Under the pieces are notes generated by a model. That model saw nothing but the letters and a program-made list of their open reading frames with translations, was not told where the DNA came from and ran no database searches. A DNA stretch of 64,000 nt from Squalus acanthias (lineage: Eukaryota): the NCBI GenBank assembly GCA_030390025.1, contig CM059432.1, positions 70,372,001 to 70,436,000 of the forward strand, read 5' to 3'. The translations under genes were made by a program, and so were the position numbers. Positions 26,437 through 57,379 of the stretch are shown one piece after another. Position 1 is the stretch's first letter. The number at the start of each line of letters is the position of its first letter.

Positions 26437-27202
26437 GAACATAAGACGTAGGAGCAAGAGTAGGTCATGTGGCCCCTCGAGCCTGCTCCGCCATTCAATA
26501 AGATCATGGCTGATCTGATCTTGGCCTCAACTCCACTTCCCTGCCCGCTCCCCGTAACCCTGGACTCCCTTATCGTTCAAAAATCTGTCTATCTCCACCT
26601 TAAATATATTCAATGACCCAGCCTCCACAGCTCTCTGGGGAAGAGAATTCCAAAGATTCACAACCCTGAGAGAAGAAATTCCTCCTCATTTCCAATTTAA
26701 AAGGGTGCCCCCTTATTCTGAAATTATGCCCCCTAGTTCTAGATTCCCCAACGAGGGGAAACATCCTCTCTGCATCTACCCTGTCAAGCCCCTTCAGAAT
26801 CTTATATGTTTCAATAAGATCCCCTCTCATTCTTCTAAACTCCAATGAGTATAGGCCCAACCTGCTCAACCTTTCTTCATAAGATAACCCCTTCATCTCT
26901 GGAATCAACCTCGTGAACCTTCTCTGAACTGCCTCCAAGTATATCCTTCCTTAAGACCACCAAAACTGTACGCAGTACTCCAGGTGTTGTAACAGGACTC
27001 CCCTACTTTTATACTCCATTCCCTTTGCAATAAAGGCCAACACTCCATTTGCCTTCCTAATAACTTGCTGTACCTGCATGCAAACTTTTTGTGATTCATG
27101 TACAAGGACCCCCAGATCCCTCTGTACCTCAGCATGTAATCTCTCGCCATTTAAATAATAATTTGCTTTTTTATTTTTCCTACCAAAGTGGATAACCTCG
27201 CA
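26437..27202 (-). mobile_element. CR1 LINE 3' part (host of the intact + CR1)
   Basis: Reverse-complement tail at 26437-26520 and RT C-terminus; continues at 30538. Confidence 0.9.
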
Positions 27203-30200
27203 GTACTGGGGCAGGAGAGAGCTGTTCCGTTGGGACGGACTTCACTTGGCCAGTGCTGGGACTAGTGTCCTGGCGAATCGAATAACTAGGGCTGTGGAGA
27301 GGGCTTTAAACTAATTAGTGGGGGGGAGGTTTCAAGAGAGCAAAAAATAAAAATGACAACAGAGAGGGTCATAGACATAGGTAGCAGTAGGGGAATCACA
27401 AATCAGAGCGTGGCAGGAAGGGACAGAGTGTGTGGAGTAAAAGGTAAACTGGTAAAAAGTGAAAAAGCAGGAACTAAGTGCCACAAAGCATATTTGAAAG
27501 TTCTCTATCTGAATGCACGTAGCATTCGTAACAAAATAGACGAGTTAATGGCACAAATAACTACATATGGTTATGATATTGTGGCCATTACAGAAACATG
27601 GCTGCAGGGTGACAATGCCTGGGAATTAAACATACCAGGTTATTTAACGATCAGGAAGGACAGGCAGGAAGGAAGGGGCGGTGGGGTGGCTATGTTAATA
27701 AAGGAAGGAATCACTGTAATACAGAGTAATGATATTGGGTCAAAAAATCATGATAATGAAACAGTTTGGGTGGAGATAAGGAATAATAAGGGGAAAAAAA
27801 CATTAGTGGGCGTAGTCTATAGGCCTCCGAACAGTTGCAACTCTATTGGACGGAGTATCAATCAGGAAATAGTTGAGGCATGTAATAAGGGAACATCTAT
27901 AATTATGGGGGATTTTAACTATCATATTAATTGGACAAATCAAATGGGGCAGGGCTGCCTTGAGGATGAGTTCATTGAGTGTATTAGGGATGGGTTTCTT
28001 GAGCAGTATGTAACTGAACCGACCAGGGGGCAAGCAACCTTAGATCTGGTCCTGTGTAACGAGACAGGATTAATTAAAAATGTCCTAGTGAAGGATCCCC
28101 TTGGAATGAGTGACCATAACATGGTTGAATTCCATATTCAATTAGAGGGTGAGAAGGTTGGATCTCAAACAAGCGTGCTAAGCTTGAATAAAGGAGACTA
28201 TGAAGGTATGCGAGCGGAATTGAGTAGAGTGGATTGGGAAAATAGATTAAAGGGTAAGACGACACATGATCAGTGGTGTACATTCAAGGAGTTATTTTAC
28301 AACTTCCAAAAAAAATATATTCCACTGAAAAGAAAAGGGTGTAAAAGAAAGGACAGTCATCCGTGGCTAAGTAAAGAAATTAAGGATAGTATTCGACTAA
28401 AAACAAGGGCATATAAGGTAGCGAAATCTAGTGGGAGGACAGAGGATTGGGAAAACTTTAAAAGGCAGCAAAAAATAACAAAAAGATTGATTAAGAAAGG
28501 GAAGATAGATTATGAAAGTAAATTAGCAAAAAATATAAAAACAGATAGTAAGAGTTTTTATAGTTATATAAAAAGAAAAAGGGTGGCTAAAGTAAATGTT
28601 GGTCCCTTAGAGGATGAGACCGGGAAATTAATGGTGGGAAATATGGAGATGGCAAAAACACTGAATGAATATTTTGTATCAGTCTTTACAGTAGAGGACA
28701 CTAAGAATATCCCAACACTGGACAAACAGGGGGCTATAGGGGGAGAGGAGCTAAACACGATCAAAACCACTAAGGAAGTGGTACTCGGTAAAATAATGGG
28801 ACTCAAGGCGGATAAATCACCTGGACCTGATGGCTTACATCCTAGAGTCTTGAAGGAAGTGGCGGTAGGGATTGTAGATGCATTGGTAATAATTTTTCAA
28901 AACTCCCTGGATTCCGCTAAGGTCCCGGCAGACTGGAAAACTGCTAATGTAACACCCTTATTTAAAAAGGGCAGTAGACAGAAGGCTGGTAACTATAGAC
29001 CGGTTAGCCTAACATCTGTGGTAGGTAAAATTTTGGAGTCCATTATTAAGGAAACAGTAACAGGACATTTGGATAATCATAATTTAATAAGACAAAGTCA
29101 GCATGGTTTTACGAAGGGGAAGTCATGTTTGACAAATTTGCTGGAGTTCTTTGAGGAAGTAACATATAGAGTGGATAAAGGGGAACCAGTGGACGTAGTG
29201 TATTTAGACTTCCAAAAGGCATTTGACAAGGTGCCACACAAAAGATTATTGCTTAAGGTAAAAAATCACGGGATTGGGGGTAATATTCTGGCATGGATAG
29301 AGGATTGGCTATCTAACAGAAAGCAAAGAGTTGGGATAAATGGTTCATTCTCAGACTGGCAATCAGGAACTAGTGGTGTTCCACAGGGGTCAGTGCTGGG
29401 TCCCCAACTCTTCACAATCTATATTAACGATTTGGAGGAAGGGACCAAGTGTAACATATCAAAATTTGCAGATGATACAAAGATGGGAGGGAAAGTAGTG
29501 AGTGAGGAGGACATAAAAAACCTGCAAGGGGACATAGACAGGCTAAGTAAGTGGGCAGAGATTTGGCAGATGGAATACAACACTGGAAAGTGTGAGGTGA
29601 TGCACTTTGGCAGGAAAAATCCTAGAGCAATTTATTATCTTAATGGCAAGAAACTGGAGAGTACTGAAGTGCAAAGGGATCTGGGGGTCCTGGTGCACGA
29701 AACTCAAAAGGTTAGTATGCAGGTGCAGCAAGTGATTAAGAAGGCAAATGGAATGTTGGCTTTCATTGCTAGGGGGATAGAATATAAAAATAGGGAGGTA
29801 TTGCTTCAGTTGTACAAGGTATTGGTGAGACCGCACCTGGAATACTGCATACAGTTTTGGTGTCCTTACTTAAGGAAAGACATCCTTGCTCTCGAGGCAG
29901 TGCAAAAAAGGTTCACTCGGTTAATCCCGGGGATGAGGGGGTGGTCATATGAGGAGAGGTTGGGTAGATTGGGACTCTACTCATTGGAGTTCAGAAGAAT
30001 GAGAGGCGATCTTATTGAAACATATAAGATTGTGAAGGGGTTGGATCGGGTGGATGCGGGGAGGATGTTCCCGATGACGGGTGAGACGAGAACTAGGGGA
30101 CATAGTCTTAGAATAAGGGGCTGCTCTTTCAAAACTGAGATGAGGAGGAACTACTTCACTCAGAGGGTGGTAGGTCCATGGAATATGCTGCCACAAAAAG

Positions 30201-30537
30201 CTGTAGAAGCTACAACATTAATTAAATTTAAAACAGAAATAGACAGTTTCCTAGAAGTAAAGGGCATTAAGGGTTACGGGGAGCGGGCAGGAATTTGGAC
30301 ATGAGTCTAGGTTCGGATCGGTCATGGCCCTGTGGGTAGTGGAGCGGGCCCAGGGACTGTGTAGCCTGATTCTGCTCCTATTTCGTGTGTGCAATTCTGT
30401 TAGATGCAGGAGATGGTTCTGTGATAGATAGTAGATTGGCGGTTAGGATCAGATCAGCCATGATCTTATTGAATGGCGGAGCAGGCTCGAGGGGCCGATT
30501 GGCCTACTCCTGCTCCTATTTCTATGTTATGTTCTTA
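27203..30537 (+). mobile_element. CR1-clade (HER1-like) LINE, 5'-truncated within ORF1, ORF2 intact
   Basis: ORF1 C-terminus ...DGLHLASAGTSVLANRITRAVERALN* (stop 27312-27314), full ORF2, and CR1 3' tail GATCAGCCATGATC...GGCCTACTCCTGCTCCTATTTCTATG. Confidence 0.95.
27353..30304 (+). CDS. CR1 ORF2: AP-endonuclease + reverse transcriptase, 983 aa, uninterrupted
   Basis: APE motifs NARS, TETWL, YRPP, GDFN, SDHN. RT motifs [39 protein letters not shown]. The true start is uncertain (see findings). Confidence 0.95.
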   Translation: MTTERVIDIGSSRGITNQSVAGRDRVCGVKGKLVKSEKAGTKCHKAYLKVLYLNARSIRNKIDELMAQITTYGYDIVAITETWLQGDNAWELNIPGYLTIRKDRQEGRGGGVAMLIKEGITVIQSNDIGSKNHDNETVWVEIRNNKGKKTLVGVVYRPPNSCNSIGRSINQEIVEACNKGTSIIMGDFNYHINWTNQMGQGCLEDEFIECIRDGFLEQYVTEPTRGQATLDLVLCNETGLIKNVLVKDPLGMSDHNMVEFHIQLEGEKVGSQTSVLSLNKGDYEGMRAELSRVDWENRLKGKTTHDQWCTFKELFYNFQKKYIPLKRKGCKRKDSHPWLSKEIKDSIRLKTRAYKVAKSSGRTEDWENFKRQQKITKRLIKKGKIDYESKLAKNIKTDSKSFYSYIKRKRVAKVNVGPLEDETGKLMVGNMEMAKTLNEYFVSVFTVEDTKNIPTLDKQGAIGGEELNTIKTTKEVVLGKIMGLKADKSPGPDGLHPRVLKEVAVGIVDALVIIFQNSLDSAKVPADWKTANVTPLFKKGSRQKAGNYRPVSLTSVVGKILESIIKETVTGHLDNHNLIRQSQHGFTKGKSCLTNLLEFFEEVTYRVDKGEPVDVVYLDFQKAFDKVPHKRLLLKVKNHGIGGNILAWIEDWLSNRKQRVGINGSFSDWQSGTSGVPQGSVLGPQLFTIYINDLEEGTKCNISKFADDTKMGGKVVSEEDIKNLQGDIDRLSKWAEIWQMEYNTGKCEVMHFGRKNPRAIYYLNGKKLESTEVQRDLGVLVHETQKVSMQVQQVIKKANGMLAFIARGIEYKNREVLLQLYKVLVRPHLEYCIQFWCPYLRKDILALEAVQKRFTRLIPGMRGWSYEERLGRLGLYSLEFRRMRGDLIETYKIVKGLDRVDAGRMFPMTGETRTRGHSLRIRGCSFKTEMRRNYFTQRVVGPWNMLPQKAVEATTLIKFKTEIDSFLEVKGIKGYGERAGIWT

Positions 30538-32400
30538 TTTTCCCACATTAAACTCCATCTGCCAGATTTTTGCCCACTCACTTAGCCTATCTATATCCCC
30601 TTGGAGATTCTTTGCGTCCTCCACACCATTTGCTTTCCCACCTATCTTTGTATCATCAGCAAATTTGGCTACACAACACTCGGTCCCTTCATCCAAGTCA
30701 TTAATATAGATTGTAAATAGTTGAGGCCCCAGCACTGATCCCTGCGGCACCCCACTAGTTACCGTTTGCCAACCTGAAAATGACCCATTTATCCCGACTC
30801 TCTGTTTTCTGTTAGTTAGCCAATCCTCTATCCATGCTAATATACTACCCCCAACCCCGTGAGCTCTTATCTTGTGCAGTAACCTTTTATGTGGCACCTT
30901 ATCGAATGCATTCTGGAAATCCAAATACACATCTACTGGTTCCCCTTTATCCACCCTGCTCATTACATCCTCAAAGAACTCCAGCAAATTTGTCAAACAT
31001 GATTTTCCTTTCATAAAACCATGCTGACTCTGCTTGACTATATTATGATTTTCTAAATCTCCTGCTATCACTTCATTAATGATGCACTCCAGCATTTTCC
31101 CCAATGACAGATGTTAGGCTAACTGGTCAATAGTTGCCTGCTTTCTGTCTCCCTCCTTTCTTAAATAGGGGTGTTACATTTGCGGTTTTCCAGTCCGCCG
31201 GGACCTCTCCAGAATCCAGGGAATTTTGGTAGATTATAACCAATGCATCCACTATCTCTGCAGCCACCTCTTTTAAGACTCTAGGATGCACGCCACTGGG
31301 TCCAGGGGACCTGTCCACCTTTAGTCCCATTAGTTTGCCTACTACTTTCTCTCTAGTGATAGTGATTGTTTTAAGTTCACCCCCCCCACCACCCCAATAG
31401 CCCCATGATTATCCATTATTGGGATGCTTTTAGTGTCTTCTACCGTGAAGACCGATACAAAATATTTGTTCAAGGTCTCCGCCATTTCCCTGTTCCCATT
31501 ATTAATTCCCCAGACTCAGCCTCTAGGGGGCCAACGTTTTCTTTAGCTACTCTCTTCCTTTTTATATACCTGTAGAAGCTCTTACTGTCTGTTTTTATAT
31601 TTCTTGCTAGCTTACTCTCATAAGCTATCTTCTCTCTCTTTCATTTTTTTAGTCACCTTTGCTGCTTTTTAAAAATTTCCCAATCCTCTGGCCTTTCACT
31701 ATTCTTCGCAACATTGTATGCTTTTGTTCTCAATTTGATACCATCCTTTACTTCCTTAGTTAGCCACGGATGGTTCATCCTTCTCTTAGAGTCTTTCTTT
31801 CTCACTGGAATATATCTTTGCTGAGATATCTCCTTAAGTGTTTGCCACTGCTTTTCTACAGTCTTACCCTGTAATATATTTTCCCAGTCCACTTTAACCA
31901 AGTCTGCCTTCATACCTTTGTAATTACCTTTGTTTAAGTTCAGGACACTAGTTTGAGACCTAGCTTTCTCACCCTCAAACTGAATTTGAAATTCTACCAT
32001 GCTATGATCACTCTTCCCAAGAGGATCCTTCACTTCGAGATCATTAATTAATCCAGCCTCGTTACACATTACCAGATCTAAAATAGTCTTCTTCCTGGTT
32101 GGTTCCACAACATATTGTTCCAAGAAACCATCCCGTATACACTCTAAGAACTCTGCAAGTCTACCTTTGCCAATTTGCTTTGTCCAATCAATAGGAAGAT
32201 GAAAATCTCCCATGATTATAGCTGTACCTTTCTTACAAGCCTCTATCATTTCTTGATTTATTCTCTGTCCTACAGTGTGGCTACTGTTGGGGGGGGCCTG
32301 TAGACCACTCCCACCAGTGACTTTTTACCCTTATTATTTCTTATCTCCACCCAAACTGATTTTACATCTTTATCTTCTAGGCCAGTATCATTTCTCATTA
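30538..32400 (-). mobile_element. CR1 LINE 5' part (APE-RT) of the same host element
   Basis: ORFs 30535-31104, 31127-31330 and 31653-32249. Joins seamlessly to 27202 (gataacctcgca|ttttcccacatt). Confidence 0.9.
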
Positions 32401-40500: not shown

Positions 40501-40902
40501 TGGAGTCAGCTTCCACACTTACAATAACACCTAGAACATAAGAGCATAAGAAATAGGAGCAGGCGTTGGCGATTCGGCCCCTCGAGCCTGCTCCGCCATT
40601 CAATAAGAGCCCCCGAGGCGTGGTAGGCCCAGAGCAGCGGAGGCAGCCCGAGGAGCGGCGAGCGGCGGTATAAAGGTGAGCTCGGGGGATTTTCCCTAAT
40701 CCAGGTCTGGGAGAGGGAAGCAAAAAACAATCGAACTGTGACATCACCAAGAAGCAGGTAAGTGATTGGTTGGTGAGTATTTTCCTTCTAAATTTTTCTA
40801 AACTTAAAATTTTGCGGTTTCTAGGGTCTCTGTTGTGTAGCGGGGACTACTGTTAAGAAAGGGCCCTTGAGTATATCATTTAATTGAAGTGAAATTGGTG
40901 GG

Positions 40903-40961
40903 ATTAATTTAATTTAATTAATTAATTAATTAATTAATTAAATTAATTAATCAATTAATTA
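40903..40961. repeat. (AATT)n microsatellite in the CR1 5'UTR
   Basis: Direct reading. Confidence 0.9.
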
Positions 40962-40972
40962 AAGGGTAATTC

Positions 40973-41898
40973 ATGGCAGGAGAGCTCCGCCCCGTGATAT
41001 GCTCCTCCTGCTATATGTGTGTGGGAAGTGTACCCAACTGCAGCTACTGATAGACCGCATTGCGGCTCTGGAGCTGCGGATGGATGCATATTGGAGCATT
41101 CGCGACGCTGAGAACGTTGTGGATAGCACATTTAGCGAGTTGGTCACACCGCAAGTAAAGGGTGTACAGGCAGGAAGTGAATGGCTGACCACCAGGCAGA
41201 GTAAGCGGTGCAGGCAGGTAGTGCAAGGGTCCCCTGTGGCCATCCCCCTCTCAAACAGATATACCACTTTGGATACTGTTGGGGGGGTGGGGGGGGGGGA
41301 GATGATTTATCAGGGGAAGGCAGCAGCAGCCAACTTCCTGGCACCATGGGTGGCTCTGCTGCACAGGCTGGGAGGAAAAAGTGTGGAAGAGCTGTAGTGA
41401 TAGGGGACTCAATTGTAAGGGGAATAGATAGGCATTTCTGTGGCTGCAAACGAGACTCCAGGATGGTGTGTTGCCTCCCTGGTGCAAGGGTCAAGGACGT
41501 CTCAGAGCGGCTACAGAACATTTTGGAGGGGGAGGGCGAACAGCCAGTTGTCGTGGTGCACATAGGCACCAACGATATAGGTAAAAAACGGGATGAGGTC
41601 CTAAAAGCAGAATATAGGGAGTTAGGAGGTAAATTTAAAAAATAGGACCTCAAAGGTAGTAATCTCAGGATTGCTACCAGTGCCACGTGCTAGTCAGAGT
41701 AGAAATAGGAGGATATTTCAAATGAATACGTGGCTAGAGGAATGGTGCAAGGGGGAGGGATTCAAATTCCTTGGACATTGGAACCGGTTCTGGGGGAGGT
41801 GGGACCAGTACAAACGGGACGGTCTGTACCTGGGCAGGGCCGGGACCGATGTCCTAGGGGGAGTGCTTGCTAGTGCTGTTGGGGAGGGTTTAAACTAA
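40973..41898 (+). pseudogene. CR1 ORF1 (zinc finger/leucine zipper + SGNH esterase), frameshifted
   Basis: Fragments in three frames. Frameshifts at the zinc finger, at the G-run ~41281-41299 and at the A-run ~41640. Confidence 0.85.
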
Positions 41899-44871
41899 AG
41901 TGGCAGGGGGTTGGGAACCTGAGCAGGGAGACAGAGGAAAGGGAAACAAGGATAAAAGCAAAAGACAGGAAGGAGAAAAACAAAAGTAGAAGGCAAAGAA
42001 CTCAACGGTTTAAATCAAACATGGTCACAGTAAATAATAATTCATATAGGTCTGAGAGCGTTAAAAAAACAAGCCTGAAGGCTTTGTGTCTTAATGCAAG
42101 GAGCATTGGGAACAAGGTGGATGAATTAGCTGCGCAAATAGAGGTAAATGAATACGATTTGATTGGGATTACAGCAACATGGCTCCAGGGTGGCCAAGGC
42201 TGGGAACTCAACATCCAGGGGTATTCAATATTTAGGAAAGATAGGCAAAAAAGGGAGGTGGGGTAGCATTGCTGGTTAAAGAGGGGATTAACACAATTGA
42301 GAGGAAGGATATTAGCTCTGATGATGCGGAATCTGTATGGGTAGAACTGAGAAATAACATGGGGCAGAAAACGTTAGTGGGAGTGGTATATAGACCTCCA
42401 AACAGTAATACGGAGGTTGGGGACGGCATTAAAAGGGAAATTAGAGAAGCATGCAGTAAGGGCACAGCAGTCATCATGGGTGACTTTAATTTACATATAG
42501 ATTGGGCTAACCAAATTAGTAAAAATACTGTGGAGGAGGAATTCCTAGAATGTTTACGGGATGGTTTTCTGGAACAATATGTCGAGGAACCAACCAGAGA
42601 TCAGGCCATCTTAGACTGGGTATTATGTAACGAAAAAGGATTAATTAGCAATCTTGTTGTACGAGGCCCCTTGGGTCAGAGTGATCATAATATGATAGAA
42701 TTCTTCATTAAGATGGAGAGTGAAGTAGTTGAATCAGAGACTAGGGTCCTGAATTTAAATAAAGGAAACTACGATGGTATGAGGTGCGAATTGGGTAGGA
42801 TTGATTGGGGAATGTCACTCAAAGGGTTGACGGTGGATAGGCAATGACAAACATTCAAAGACTGCATGGATGAACTACAGAATTTGTTCATCCCAGTGTG
42901 GCATAAGAATAAAACAAAAAGGGTGACTCAACCGTGGCTAACAAGGGAAATTAGGGATAGCATAAGATCCAAGGAGAGGGCATATGAATTGGCCAGAAAA
43001 AGCAGTAACCCTGAGGATTGGGAGCAGTTTAGGATTCAACAAAGGAGGACAAAGGGATTAATTAAGATGGGGAAAATAGAATATGAAAGTAAGCTTGCAG
43101 GGAACATAAAAACTGACTAAGAGCTTTTATAGATATGTGAAGAGAAAAAGATTAGTGAAATCAAGTGTAGGTCCCTTGCAGTCAGAAGCGGGGGAAGTTA
43201 TAATGGGGAACAAAGAAATGGCATGCCAATTAAATGCATATTTTGGTTCTGTCTTCACAAAGGAGGACACAAATAACCTCCCAGAGATGTTGGAGAACAT
43301 AGGGTCTGATAAAAGGGAGGAACTGAAAGAAATCAGTATTTGCAGGGAAATGGTGTTAGGGAAATTGACGGGATTGAAGGCCAATAAATCCCCAGGGCCT
43401 GATAATCTACATCCTAGGGTACTTAAGGAAGTGGCCCTAGAAATAGTAGATGCATTGCTGATCATCTTCCAACATTCGATGGAATCTGGAACTGTACCCA
43501 TGGATTGGAGGGTAGCTAATGTTACCCCACTATTCAAAAAAGGTGGTAGAGAGAAAATGGGGAATTACAGACTGGTAAGCCTGACATCGGTAGTGGGGAA
43601 AATGCTAGAGTCCATTATAAAGGATGTAACAGCTGAGCACTTGAAAAACAGTGACAGGATTGGACAAAGTCAACATGGATTTACAAAAGATAAATCGTGC
43701 TTGACTAATCTATTGAAATTTTTTGAGGATGTAACTGGGAAAATAGATAAGGGAGAACCAGTAGATGTGGTGTATTTGGACTTTCAAAAGGCTTTCGATA
43801 AGGTCCCGCATAAGAGATTAGCGTGTAAAGTTAAGGCATATGGGATTGGGGGCAAGGTATTGACTTGGATAGAGAACTGGTTGGCGGACAGAAAGCAGAG
43901 AGTAGGAATTAATGGGTCTTTTTCCGAGTGGCAGGCAGTGACTAGTGGGGTACCGCAGGGAGCTGTCCTTGGACCCCAGCTATTCACAATATACATTAAT
44001 GATCTAGATTAGGGAACTAAATGTAATATCTCCAAGTTTGCAGATGACACAAAGCTGGGTGGGAGTGTGTGCTGCGAGGAGGATACTGAGAAACTCCAGG
44101 ATGATTTTGACAGGTTGGGTGAGTGGGCAGAAGCGTGGCAGATGCAATATAACGTGGATAAATGCGAGGTTATCCACTTTGGTGTCAAAAACAGAAAGGC
44201 AGATTATCTGAATGGCAATAAATTGGGAGAAGGGTAAGTGCAACGAGACCTGGGTGTCCTTGTGCACCAGTCGCTAAAGGTAAGCATGCAGGTGCAGCAG
44301 GCGGTGAAGAAGGCAAATGGTATGTTGGCCTTCATAGCGAAAGGGTTTGAGTATAGGAACAGGGATGTCCTGCTGCAGTTGTACAGGGCCTTGGTGAGAC
44401 CACACCTGGAGTACTGTGTGCAGTTTTGGTCGCCTTATCTGAGGAAGGATGTTCTTGCCATGGAAGGAGTTCAGCGAAGATTCACAAGGCTGATACCTGG
44501 GATGGCAGGAATGACATGAGGAGAGATTGGGTTGATTGGGCTTATACTCGCTGGAGTATAGAAGAATGAGAGGGGATCTCATCGAAACATATAAAATTCT
44601 GACAGGTCTGGACAAACTAGATGCAGGAAGAATGTTCCTGATGGTCGGAGAGTCCAGAACCAGGGGTCATAATCCAAGGATAAGGGGTAAGCCATTTAGG
44701 ACAGAAATGAGGAAGAATTTCTTCACCCAGAGAGTGGTGAACCTGTGGAATTCTCTACCACAGAAGGTAGTTGAGGCCAAGTCATTAAATATATTCAAGA
44801 ATGAGTTAGATATATTTCTTAAAGCTAAAGCTATCAAAGGATATGGGGAGAAGGCAGGTACAGGGTACTGA
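41889..44871 (+). pseudogene. CR1 ORF2 (APE-RT), disrupted
   Basis: ORF-track pieces 42021-42266, 42269-42847, 42866-43120, 43137-44012, 44238-44519 and 44536-44871 are collinear with the intact ORF2 at 27353. Confidence 0.9.
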
Positions 44872-44960
44872 GTTTGGATGATCAGCCATGATCTCATCGA
44901 ATGGCGGAGCAGGCTCGAGGGGCTGAATGGCCTACTCCTGCTCCTATCTTCTATGTTTCT

Positions 44961-55662: not shown

Positions 55663-56099
55663 CTGGATAAATAAAACATTAAACCATTGTTCATGCTGCA
55701 GCATATGTAAAATTGCAGATTTTTGCACACCATTACAGTTATACTGTTGCTATATTATACCTAAGGGGAAAATTTGGCTCTTTATAACTGCAACACAGTA
55801 TTTTAAAAAACTACCTTTAAACCAATTCTTGGAGGATGTTTGCACGACAGATTGCAGTACTGTCCAGTGCAATCTCATAAGAGCCTCTAGACACAAGCAC
55901 ACCCACGTACATCTTTGAACCCTATTTTGATTGACAGTTTTGACTATTGTGAATGACTGCGATGATACCCTTTTGATATTTCTTTCTTTGTCCCAGTTTA
56001 AACTTCAAAGCAAAGGGAGAGTTATAGCTGGGTCAGATCATTGATTAGTCTACCTGTTGCTATTTGGGCAGAGTAATGAAGGATTATGTTAAGAATTTT

Positions 56100-57310
56100 C
56101 CTCGCATCCCTCTTCCCCTCCAACTCTCACAACCCATCTCTGTCGCCCCTCACTCCAATGTGCTCCCCCCTCTCCTCCTCCCCCTCCACCCCCATCTCTC
56201 TCCTACCCTTTCACCCCTCTCTCCGCCACCCCCTCTCCCCCCCCCCTCCCTCTTCTCTCCCCTCTCTCCCCTCCCCCCCCCCCTCTCCCCTCCCCTCCCC
56301 CCCCCCTCCCCTCCCCTCCCCCCCCCTCCCCCCCTCCCCCCCTCCCCTCCCCTCCCCCCCTCCCCTCCCCCCTCCCCCCCCCCCTCCACCCTCCCCTCCC
56401 CCCCCCCCCCTCCCCTCCTCCACCTCCCCCCCCCTCCCCCTCCCCCCTCCCCCCCTCCCTCCCCCCCCCCCCCCCCCTCCCCCTCCCTCCCCCTCCCCCC
56501 CTCCCCCTCCCCCCTCCCCCCCCCCCCCCCCCCCCCCCCNNNNNNNNNNNNNNNNNNNNNNNNNNNNNNNNNNNNNNNNNNNNNNNNNNNNNNNNNNNNN
56601 NNNNNNNNNNNNNNNNNNNNNNNNNNNNNNNNNNNNNNNNNNNNNNNNNNNNNNNNNNNNNNNNNNNNNNNNNNNNNNNNNNNNNNNNNNNNNNNNNCCC
56701 CCCACACCCACCCTCTCTCTCCCCCCCACACCCACCCTCTCTCTCCCCCCCACACCCACCCTCTCTCTCCCCCCCACACCCACCCTCTCTCTCCCCCCCA
56801 CACCCACCCTCTCTCTCCCCCTCCCCACACCCACCCTCTCTCTCTCCCCCCACACCCACCCTCTCTCTCCCCCCCACACCCACCCTCTCTCTCCCCCCCC
56901 ACACCCACCCTCTCTCTCCCCCCCACACCCACCCTCTCTCTCCCCCCCACACCCACCCTCTCTCTCCCCCCCACACCCACCCTCTCTCTCTCCCCCCCCA
57001 CACCCACCCTCTCTCCCCCCACCCACCCTCCCTCTCTCTCCCCCCCACACCCCCTTCTCTCTCTCCCCCCCACACCCACCCTCTCTCTCTCCCCCCCACA
57101 CCCACCCTCTCTCTCTCCCCCCCACACCCACCCTCTCTCTCTCCCCCACACCCACCCTCTCTCTCTCCCCCACACCCACCCTCTCTCTCTCTCCCCCACA
57201 CCCACCCTCTCTCTCTCTCCCCCACACCCACCCTCTCTCTCTCCCCCACACCCACCCTCTCTCTCTCTCTCCTCCCCCCCCCCATCATCCCACTCACCCT
57301 CCTCCCTCTC
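56100..57310. repeat. C/T-rich low-complexity tract, assembly gap (N 56540-56697) and ~24-bp minisatellite CCCACACCCACCCTCTCTCTC(TC)CCC (56698-~57270)
   Basis: Direct reading. Confidence 0.95.
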
Positions 57311-57379
57311 CCTGTGACGCCGTTTCTCTAATTAGCTCCTCCATCGTTTACCATTCATGAACTTCCTGTCAAAGGGATA

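Follow-up and report, generated by a model that had tools for sequence, protein, structure and literature searches.

A conserved slippery heptamer at the ORF1 stop suggests programmed -1 frameshifting into ORF2 in CR1 retrotransposons of vertebrates

How a LINE translates its second open reading frame is a long-standing question that has been answered for few elements, and there by reinitiation. CR1 is the dominant LINE of most non-mammalian vertebrates and is very common in sharks, reptiles and birds. A CR1 copy within a 64,000-nucleotide stretch of Squalus acanthias DNA (contig CM059432.1, positions 70,372,001 to 70,436,000 of the forward strand; hereafter the window) poses the question directly, as a first-pass annotation of this stretch had noticed that ORF1 ends on a U_UUA_AAC heptamer and had proposed that ORF2 is reached from it by a programmed -1 frameshift.

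The arrangement at the junction is as the annotation described it. ORF1 ends GCT TTA AAC TAA (27303-27314), with the heptamer (27305-27311, plus strand) in the ORF1 register and the UAA stop (27312-27314) adjoining it, so that after a -1 shift C-UA would be read as Leu. The -1 frame is that of ORF2 (27305-30304, plus strand), which encodes a basic linker, an APE domain from about 27494 and an RT domain; it meets no stop before its first ATG (27353), which comes 16 codons after TTT, and in total it is open from 27290 to 30304 (1004 codons, stop to stop). The G-run that had been placed about 8 nt downstream is a G7 at 27320-27326, after a gap of 8 nt, and forms part of a G-box (27320-27329, plus strand; here G7-A-GG), the conserved core of which, GGGGG at 27322-27326, occupies positions +11 to +15 after the heptamer and is a candidate stimulator.

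In calling this an ORF1/ORF2 junction, the annotation was right about the signal, with the correction that the copy holds only the final 37 codons and the stop (27201-27314, plus strand), which encode the C-terminal end of an SGNH esterase (DGLHL ... RALN*). As delimited by alignment to longer copies, the element is a young, 5'-truncated CR1 insertion (27201-30538, plus strand) nested in an older CR1 on the opposite strand. It is 98.7-99.7% identical to six longer genomic copies, five of which give 3342-base alignments (98.7-99.6%) and the sixth of which carries an insertion that splits the alignment into two pieces (99.3% and 99.7%). A 3' UTR (30305-30538, plus strand) closes with a short TATGT-type repeat and no poly(A), its end at 30538 reading TTTCTATGTTATGTTC. 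The older element is split by the young copy into parts at 26505-27200 and 30554 to about 32300 (minus strand), and no target-site duplication is evident around 27201-30538. Since the copy is a 5'-truncated insertion, the signal matters for the family and not for the copy itself. The family is young: all 150 scored esterase matches are 99-100% identical, many with an open frame of 321 codons, and both ORFs are open in four of six copies that were retrieved in full.

The full ORF1p of a sister copy (P0001) comprises a CxxC...CxxC motif, a helix at residues 27-67 and an SGNH esterase, with a Lipase_GDSL_2 match above the cut-off and similarity to PDB 4c1b (the ZfL2-1 esterase; E 1.2e-29); it is 318 aa long in the family, and its nearest named homologues come from rays and sharks, which points to a cartilaginous-fish host. 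ORF2 carries the domains PF03372, PF14529 and PF00078 (APE and RT). A zinc finger/leucine zipper plus SGNH esterase in ORF1, an APE-RT ORF2 and the lack of poly(A) are the features of canonical vertebrate CR1, and the same combination of zinc finger/coiled coil and SGNH esterase ORF1, APE-RT ORF2 and a tail without poly(A) is described in the available portions of PMC4120745, where vertebrate CR1 LINEs with an esterase ORF1 are type IVB, CR1 subgroup 7, and of the survey PMC13343379. In these same portions, the main text of the two papers contains no occurrence of frameshift or overlap and leaves the junction signal undescribed. A rough APE tree of our own loci, built with broken copies, separates only an invertebrate-type group. 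ORF1 further carries a short PxxLxNR(F/Y) motif in its disordered linker; from sharks to amniote-type copies this motif keeps a near-fixed distance to the heptamer, about 600-630 nt on the upstream side.

A single locus proves little here, and a chance origin of the motif together with the open -1 stretch is possible: TTTAAACTA has two matches in the 64-kb window against 1.27 expected, and the 13 codons between CTA and ATG would be expected by chance to hold 1.13 stops. Both matches, the one described above and a second at 41889, are CR1 ORF1 ends from different families, and no X XXY YYZ heptamer other than T TTA AAC stands in register anywhere in the 318-codon ORF1. The second match lies in a divergent CR1 that is full-length but decayed (about 40600-44960, plus strand), where the cassette (41889-41915, plus strand) includes GGT TTA AAC TAA and GGGGG at 41906-41910. 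The two families share a 5' UTR block, TGAC(G/A)TCA ... CAGGTAAGTGATTGGTTGGTGAG (40739-40780 in the window; about 2425-2470 in locus L333), whose motifs we take to be CRE-like, splice-donor-like and inverted CCAAT-like, and which is probably an internal promoter. Elsewhere in the window, at 56049-57360, six open frames (357-426 codons) overlap one another across the two strands, as is typical of a tandem repeat.

Comparative sequence tests across CR1 families lie far beyond chance. ORF1 ends were sampled via the DGLHLN motif, which lies upstream and clear of the junction site. Genome-wide there are 19,950 such anchors, 11,970 of which end YTN AAY TRR in register (Leu/Phe-Asn-stop), and T TTA AAY TRR accounts for 11,479 of these 11,970 ends, a count that is weighted by copy number. 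Among the first 100 anchors, taken as an unselected sample, Leu is in register in 63, every one of them T TTA, with an indel-displaced heptamer in 20 and a mutated or deleted one in 17; at Leu -22 of the same 100 anchors the codons are CTC (37), CTG (32), TTA (22), TTG (7) and CTT (2).

For the comparison between families we assembled 22 rows, comprising 14 CR1 families of this genome and eight amniote-type single copies from metagenome contigs; viral and genome contigs yielded no junction of use. The family clusters were built from the 155 of 180 anchors with a placeable APE, and their loci include 30 from a list pre-filtered for Leu-Asn-stop and two families that were fetched by targeted search. 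Median identity between rows is 54% over the 69 nt upstream of the site. Conservation beyond amino-acid need, which the first-pass annotation had proposed to test, is found for TTA and the preceding T: Leu -2 is encoded by TTA in 22 of 22 rows, and the third base of codon -3 is T in all 22 under four different residues (A 13, G 7, C 1, T 1), so that the synonymous variation that would have spoken against the proposal is absent. The control Leu -22, situated 20 codons upstream, is just as invariant as a residue (22 of 22 rows) and is written with six codons, Leu -14 with four. The AAC codon (21 of 22 rows) contributes little, because Asn -21 is also AAC in 12 of 12. A stop follows the heptamer directly in every row and its identity varies (TAA 10, TAG 11, TGA 1). 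On a tree, upstream third positions changed 4.7 times on average (1-9) and the two free heptamer sites not at all, although, the families being related, P values are indicative only. The residues E, Q, K, M and W are scarce at -3 (2 of 70), but equally so at -6, -7 and -11.

The junction is also widespread. Of 113 homologous proteins, 83 reach the last esterase helix and 73 end near the expected place, 70 of the latter with an LN terminus; named homologues include rays, sharks, a mormyrid fish, frogs, turtles and lizards. In a distant family (P0109) the ORF1 tail is five residues longer and the terminus is again YLN, and a fused copy of this type reads YLKLVGQGG into the APE, as the -1 relation predicts at the level of protein. 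When the consensus table of PMC13343379 was searched for TTTAAACTA, 17 of 23 matches lay at ORF1 ends, from alligator, crocodile, bullfrog, bowfin, halosaur, coelacanth, chimaera, rays and sharks, and rows labelled LINE/CR1 carry the same junction; as this search was conditioned on the motif, covered the first 400 characters per row and was scored by eye, it conveys spread, not frequency.

The relation between the two frames was the second part of the proposal, according to which ORF2 always lies in -1. This is so in 13 of 14 families. In 12 of them the family majority is -1 and stop-free, and family 3 becomes the thirteenth once more copies are included (14 of 23; mode 188 nt); old copies differ in G-run length, and of the in-frame readthrough that the first majorities had suggested for families 3 and 9, that of family 3 was rejected as an artefact of this. 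Family 9 is mixed, with copies distributed 9/7/7 by frame, and its mode and most intact copy are in -1. The linker from stop to APE measures 116-242 nt among families. From the heptamer to the first AUG or the APE start, the 12 clear families together offer 393 codons, and none of these is a stop in -1, compared with 32 and 34 stops in the other two frames and a shuffle expectation of 26.5; none of these majorities thus carries the stop before the first AUG that would have told against a shift. No AUG precedes the APE in families 5, 8 and 10 or in the amniote-type copy L069, and elsewhere the first in-frame AUG comes after 40-55 codons in five families, after 27 in one and after 0-20 in the rest. 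In the family of the window copy an ATG lies 41 nt after the stop and is kept in 34 of 34 copies. As the -1 linker is stop-free and an AUG is often absent or late, ribosomes must take up the frame of ORF2 where ORF1 stops, or close to that point. The open linker fits frameshifting and AUG-independent reinitiation alike, and it is the heptamer that favours frameshifting. Separately, four copies (L047, L065, L164 and L170) have a C-to-T change at +9 after the heptamer (TGG CAG to TGG TAG) that creates a stop in -1; the change turns up in isolated copies from at least two families, is missing from most sister copies and may mark a mutational hot spot.

Downstream of the stop, the conserved feature is the G-box, with G at +11 to +15 in 23, 23, 22, 21 and 20 of 23 rows and at +18 to +20 in 19, 21 and 17. 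In the -1 frame, +11 falls on the third base of a codon and is G in 23 of 23 rows, whether the residue is Q, K, G, W, L or S, and the Gly codon that follows it is GGG in 21 of 22 cases, versus 30 of 86 in ORF2. Such third-position conservation indicates that the box is kept as an RNA or DNA sequence. In the noisy bowfin, halosaur and bullfrog consensus rows of PMC13343379, over the portion of the table searched, no G-box is visible at +11. Folding of the 23 rows revealed no stem-loop 3' of the heptamer above shuffles (z -0.9 to +1.6), and ViennaRNA, which does not model pseudoknots, gave no stable first stem of one. There was no Rfam match at the junction. A G-quadruplex appears in the predicted fold of 12 of 23 rows, not including the family of the window copy. 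No long-range partner of the G-box is conserved, the best candidates lying at different places in each family; a C-rich partner about 650 nt upstream was rejected, as it consists of proline codons and lacks covariation. Folded frameshift stimulators are usually separated from the slippery site by a spacer of 7 nt. Counted from the stop codon, the gap to the G-box is 7 nt, and by analogy the spacing may be read either as that of a protein-bound motif (+11) or as that of a folded stimulator (7 nt).

These features invite comparison with viral signals. In the available sections of a 2016 review (PMC5009743), U_UUA_AAC is listed among the most shift-prone heptamers on mammalian ribosomes, and coronavirus (IBV-type) and retroviral signals have the same in-register U_UUA_AAC with a polymerase ORF in -1 downstream. 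The coronavirus parallel drawn by the first-pass annotation holds for the heptamer; on the 3' side, CR1 has a G-box at fixed +11 in place of a pseudoknot of coronavirus type. CR1 further differs from these signals in that the zero-frame stop comes at once, that no pseudoknot or stem-loop was found, and that the G-box occupies the place of the stimulator. Compared with a structure-stimulated -1 signal, CR1 has the heptamer and, in 13 of 14 families, the -1 ORF, and no pseudoknot or stem-loop was found in it 5-9 nt downstream. A closer likeness in position is to the arterivirus PRRSV, in which, as the same sections describe, a protein-bound CCCANCUCC motif lies 11 nt 3' of the nsp2 shift site: like the CR1 G-box it is a short, unstructured motif at +11. 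The likeness is positional only, since the CR1 box is G-rich and the arterivirus motif C-rich, and whereas the arterivirus has a binding protein and a -2 product, the CR1 signal is known from sequence alone. The review also states, in those sections, that natural use of G-quadruplex stimulators was not known.

Since ORF1 ends on a heptamer, a stop and spaced Gs, with ORF2 one base back, the enzyme is likely to be made by slippage. In our judgement the probable explanation is that a programmed -1 frameshift, for which the G-box is the likely stimulator, gives rise to an ORF1-ORF2 fusion as a minor product; we infer this from sequence, and strong comparative evidence supports what the first-pass annotation had proposed from one copy. 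Most ribosomes would stop at the end of ORF1 and release ORF1p (318 aa). In a minority, tRNA-Leu and tRNA-Asn would re-pair one base back at U_UUA_AAC or, alternatively, tRNA-Asn alone would slip with the stop waiting in the A site. The shifted ribosome would decode CUA as Leu and go on through a basic linker of 40-80 residues, giving a product of about 1315 aa (318 + 997) with the order zinc finger/coiled coil-esterase-linker-APE-RT. The two products would then stand in a ratio like that of Gag to Gag-Pol, and the enzyme would be held to the ORF1p particle. The least certain step of the scheme is the predicted slowing of the ribosome by the G-box, which would more likely act by binding a protein than as folded RNA.

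Of the alternatives, the one that survives best is termination at the ORF1 stop followed by nearby reinitiation, either at an AUG, as in SART1, or at any codon, as in L1, with the heptamer and G-box acting as a coupling signal and ORF2p made as a separate protein; we regard it as unlikely. It would explain the open -1 linker equally well, it accords with the failure to find a frameshift-type structure on folding of 23 rows and with the ATG kept throughout the family of the window copy, and it has precedents in the UAAUG of SART1 and the AUG-independent initiation of L1 (available parts of PMC3708506, PMC10275272 and PMC5009743). As in SART1 and mammalian L1, a bicistronic LINE mRNA would yield low-level ORF2, and one CR1 family even has UAAUG: this stop-start lies inside the slippery cassette of family 1 in 17 of 19 copies (including L155 and L174), and there is an AUG at +5 in L070 and L072. 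However, UAAUG is present in only one of 14 families, is absent from that of the window copy, and occurs in family 1 together with the heptamer, which that family keeps too. The codon following CUA varies widely (D, I, N, K, T, A, V, G, R, M), so the AUG is not the conserved part. Reinitiation also leaves unexplained both the perfect in-register X XXY YYZ and the -1 frame of 13 of 14 families. TURBS is the upstream UGGGA-type motif of reinitiation, and the codon table of 22 rows shows no conservation of a TURBS-like UGGGA upstream; nor did folding of 23 rows find a SART1-type downstream RNA structure at the CR1 junction. SART1 and L1 make a separate ORF2p, whereas CR1 conserves a slippery heptamer and not a start codon or downstream structure.

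Another constraint could have fixed the site, such as a protein need for the terminal Leu-Asn, an RNA-binding or packaging site or a DNA-level site, with ORF2 translated from a separate or internal start. L316 and N317 are indeed invariant in alignment A1, whose rows were mostly chosen among LN-ending proteins, and they close a predicted helix; as Leu316 ends a helix that is predicted with confidence, folding may require a Leu there, whichever codon encodes it. Yet a protein need is unable to fix synonymous bases, the ZfL2-1 esterase folds as a 171-residue chain and its alignment stops at query residue 312, LN tracks the stop and not the helix register (P0109), and the stop-free linker before the first AUG is left unexplained, which together make this reading very improbable. 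Least probable by our estimate, and close to negligible, is joining at the RNA level, whether by splicing (with ACUAA as branch point, or from a 5' UTR donor to ORF2) or by a polymerase that slips and inserts an extra base at the heptamer. In its favour, two families keep a donor-like CAG/GTAAGT in their 5' UTRs, and AG/G occurs near +10 in several. Against it, a pyrimidine tract is absent; the AG, which some rows lack, is no more than 3-8 nt away from the presumed branch point; and the branch consensus is broken by the TAG and TGA variants. The contigs of six presumed-RNA runs, a weak test because contigs drop rare forms, contain no GT..AG joint, no heptamer insertion and no splicing from the shared 5' UTR block.

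Programmed -1 frameshifting, if used by CR1, would not be the first case among LINEs. The annotation had set frameshifting, as typical of LTR elements and viruses, against the termination-reinitiation of the studied LINEs (L1, SART1). For CR1 it would be new, though for LINEs as a class it would not, because a review figure legend (PMC5911963) states that a -1 frameshift is needed for ORF2 in Dictyostelium TRE5-A and TRE3-A, APE-type non-LTR elements like CR1 that differ from it in lineage and ORF1 type. In the parts of the literature available, a +1 shift or readthrough has been proposed for Paramecium non-LTR elements and a frameshift within gag is stated for HeT-A (PMC5009743). We found no proposal of frameshifting for CR1 in the open literature; older subscription papers (1997, on chicken and turtle CR1), which lay outside this search, may have raised the idea.

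A different junction is seen in esterase LINEs of invertebrate type, which were recovered by a metagenome search and form the separate APE group. Among 45 such loci the APE start could be placed in 25, and it is in frame with the ORF1 stop in 20. A single UGA ends ORF1 in 18 of these 20 (L085, L086, L089-L092, L100-L103, L106, L111, L115, L135 and L142-L145), mostly as UGA-CUA or UGA-CCA, followed by a linker of 204-393 nt without a fixed AUG; no stem-loop 3' of the UGA stands out in 14 invertebrate-type loci (z -1.4 to +1.8). UGA-C is a known readthrough context. The sequences suggest that this junction is a candidate for readthrough and would offer a second route to the same ORF1-ORF2 fusion, which supports the idea that the fusion itself is selected.

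It is tempting to go further, and as a tentative proposal, one we hold to be somewhat less likely than otherwise, the CR1 polymerase may have been a Gag-Pol-like fusion since the jawed-vertebrate ancestor, with the unstructured +11 G-box as a new class of natural stimulator that is read by a protein (a host G-tract binder or ORF1p) or as a G-quadruplex. With invertebrate esterase LINEs fusing by UGA-C readthrough, recoding fusion would then be the rule for LINEs with an esterase ORF1. Family 1, with its UAAUG inside the slippery cassette, provides a natural case for telling frameshifting from reinitiation. If frameshifting is indeed how ORF2 is reached, the true start of CR1 ORF2p would be the ORF1 Met, so that its present annotation would be wrong, and esterase and reverse transcriptase would move together as one covalent chain. 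Deep conservation of a -1 site that has no pseudoknot would, moreover, hint at a stimulator of a new kind.
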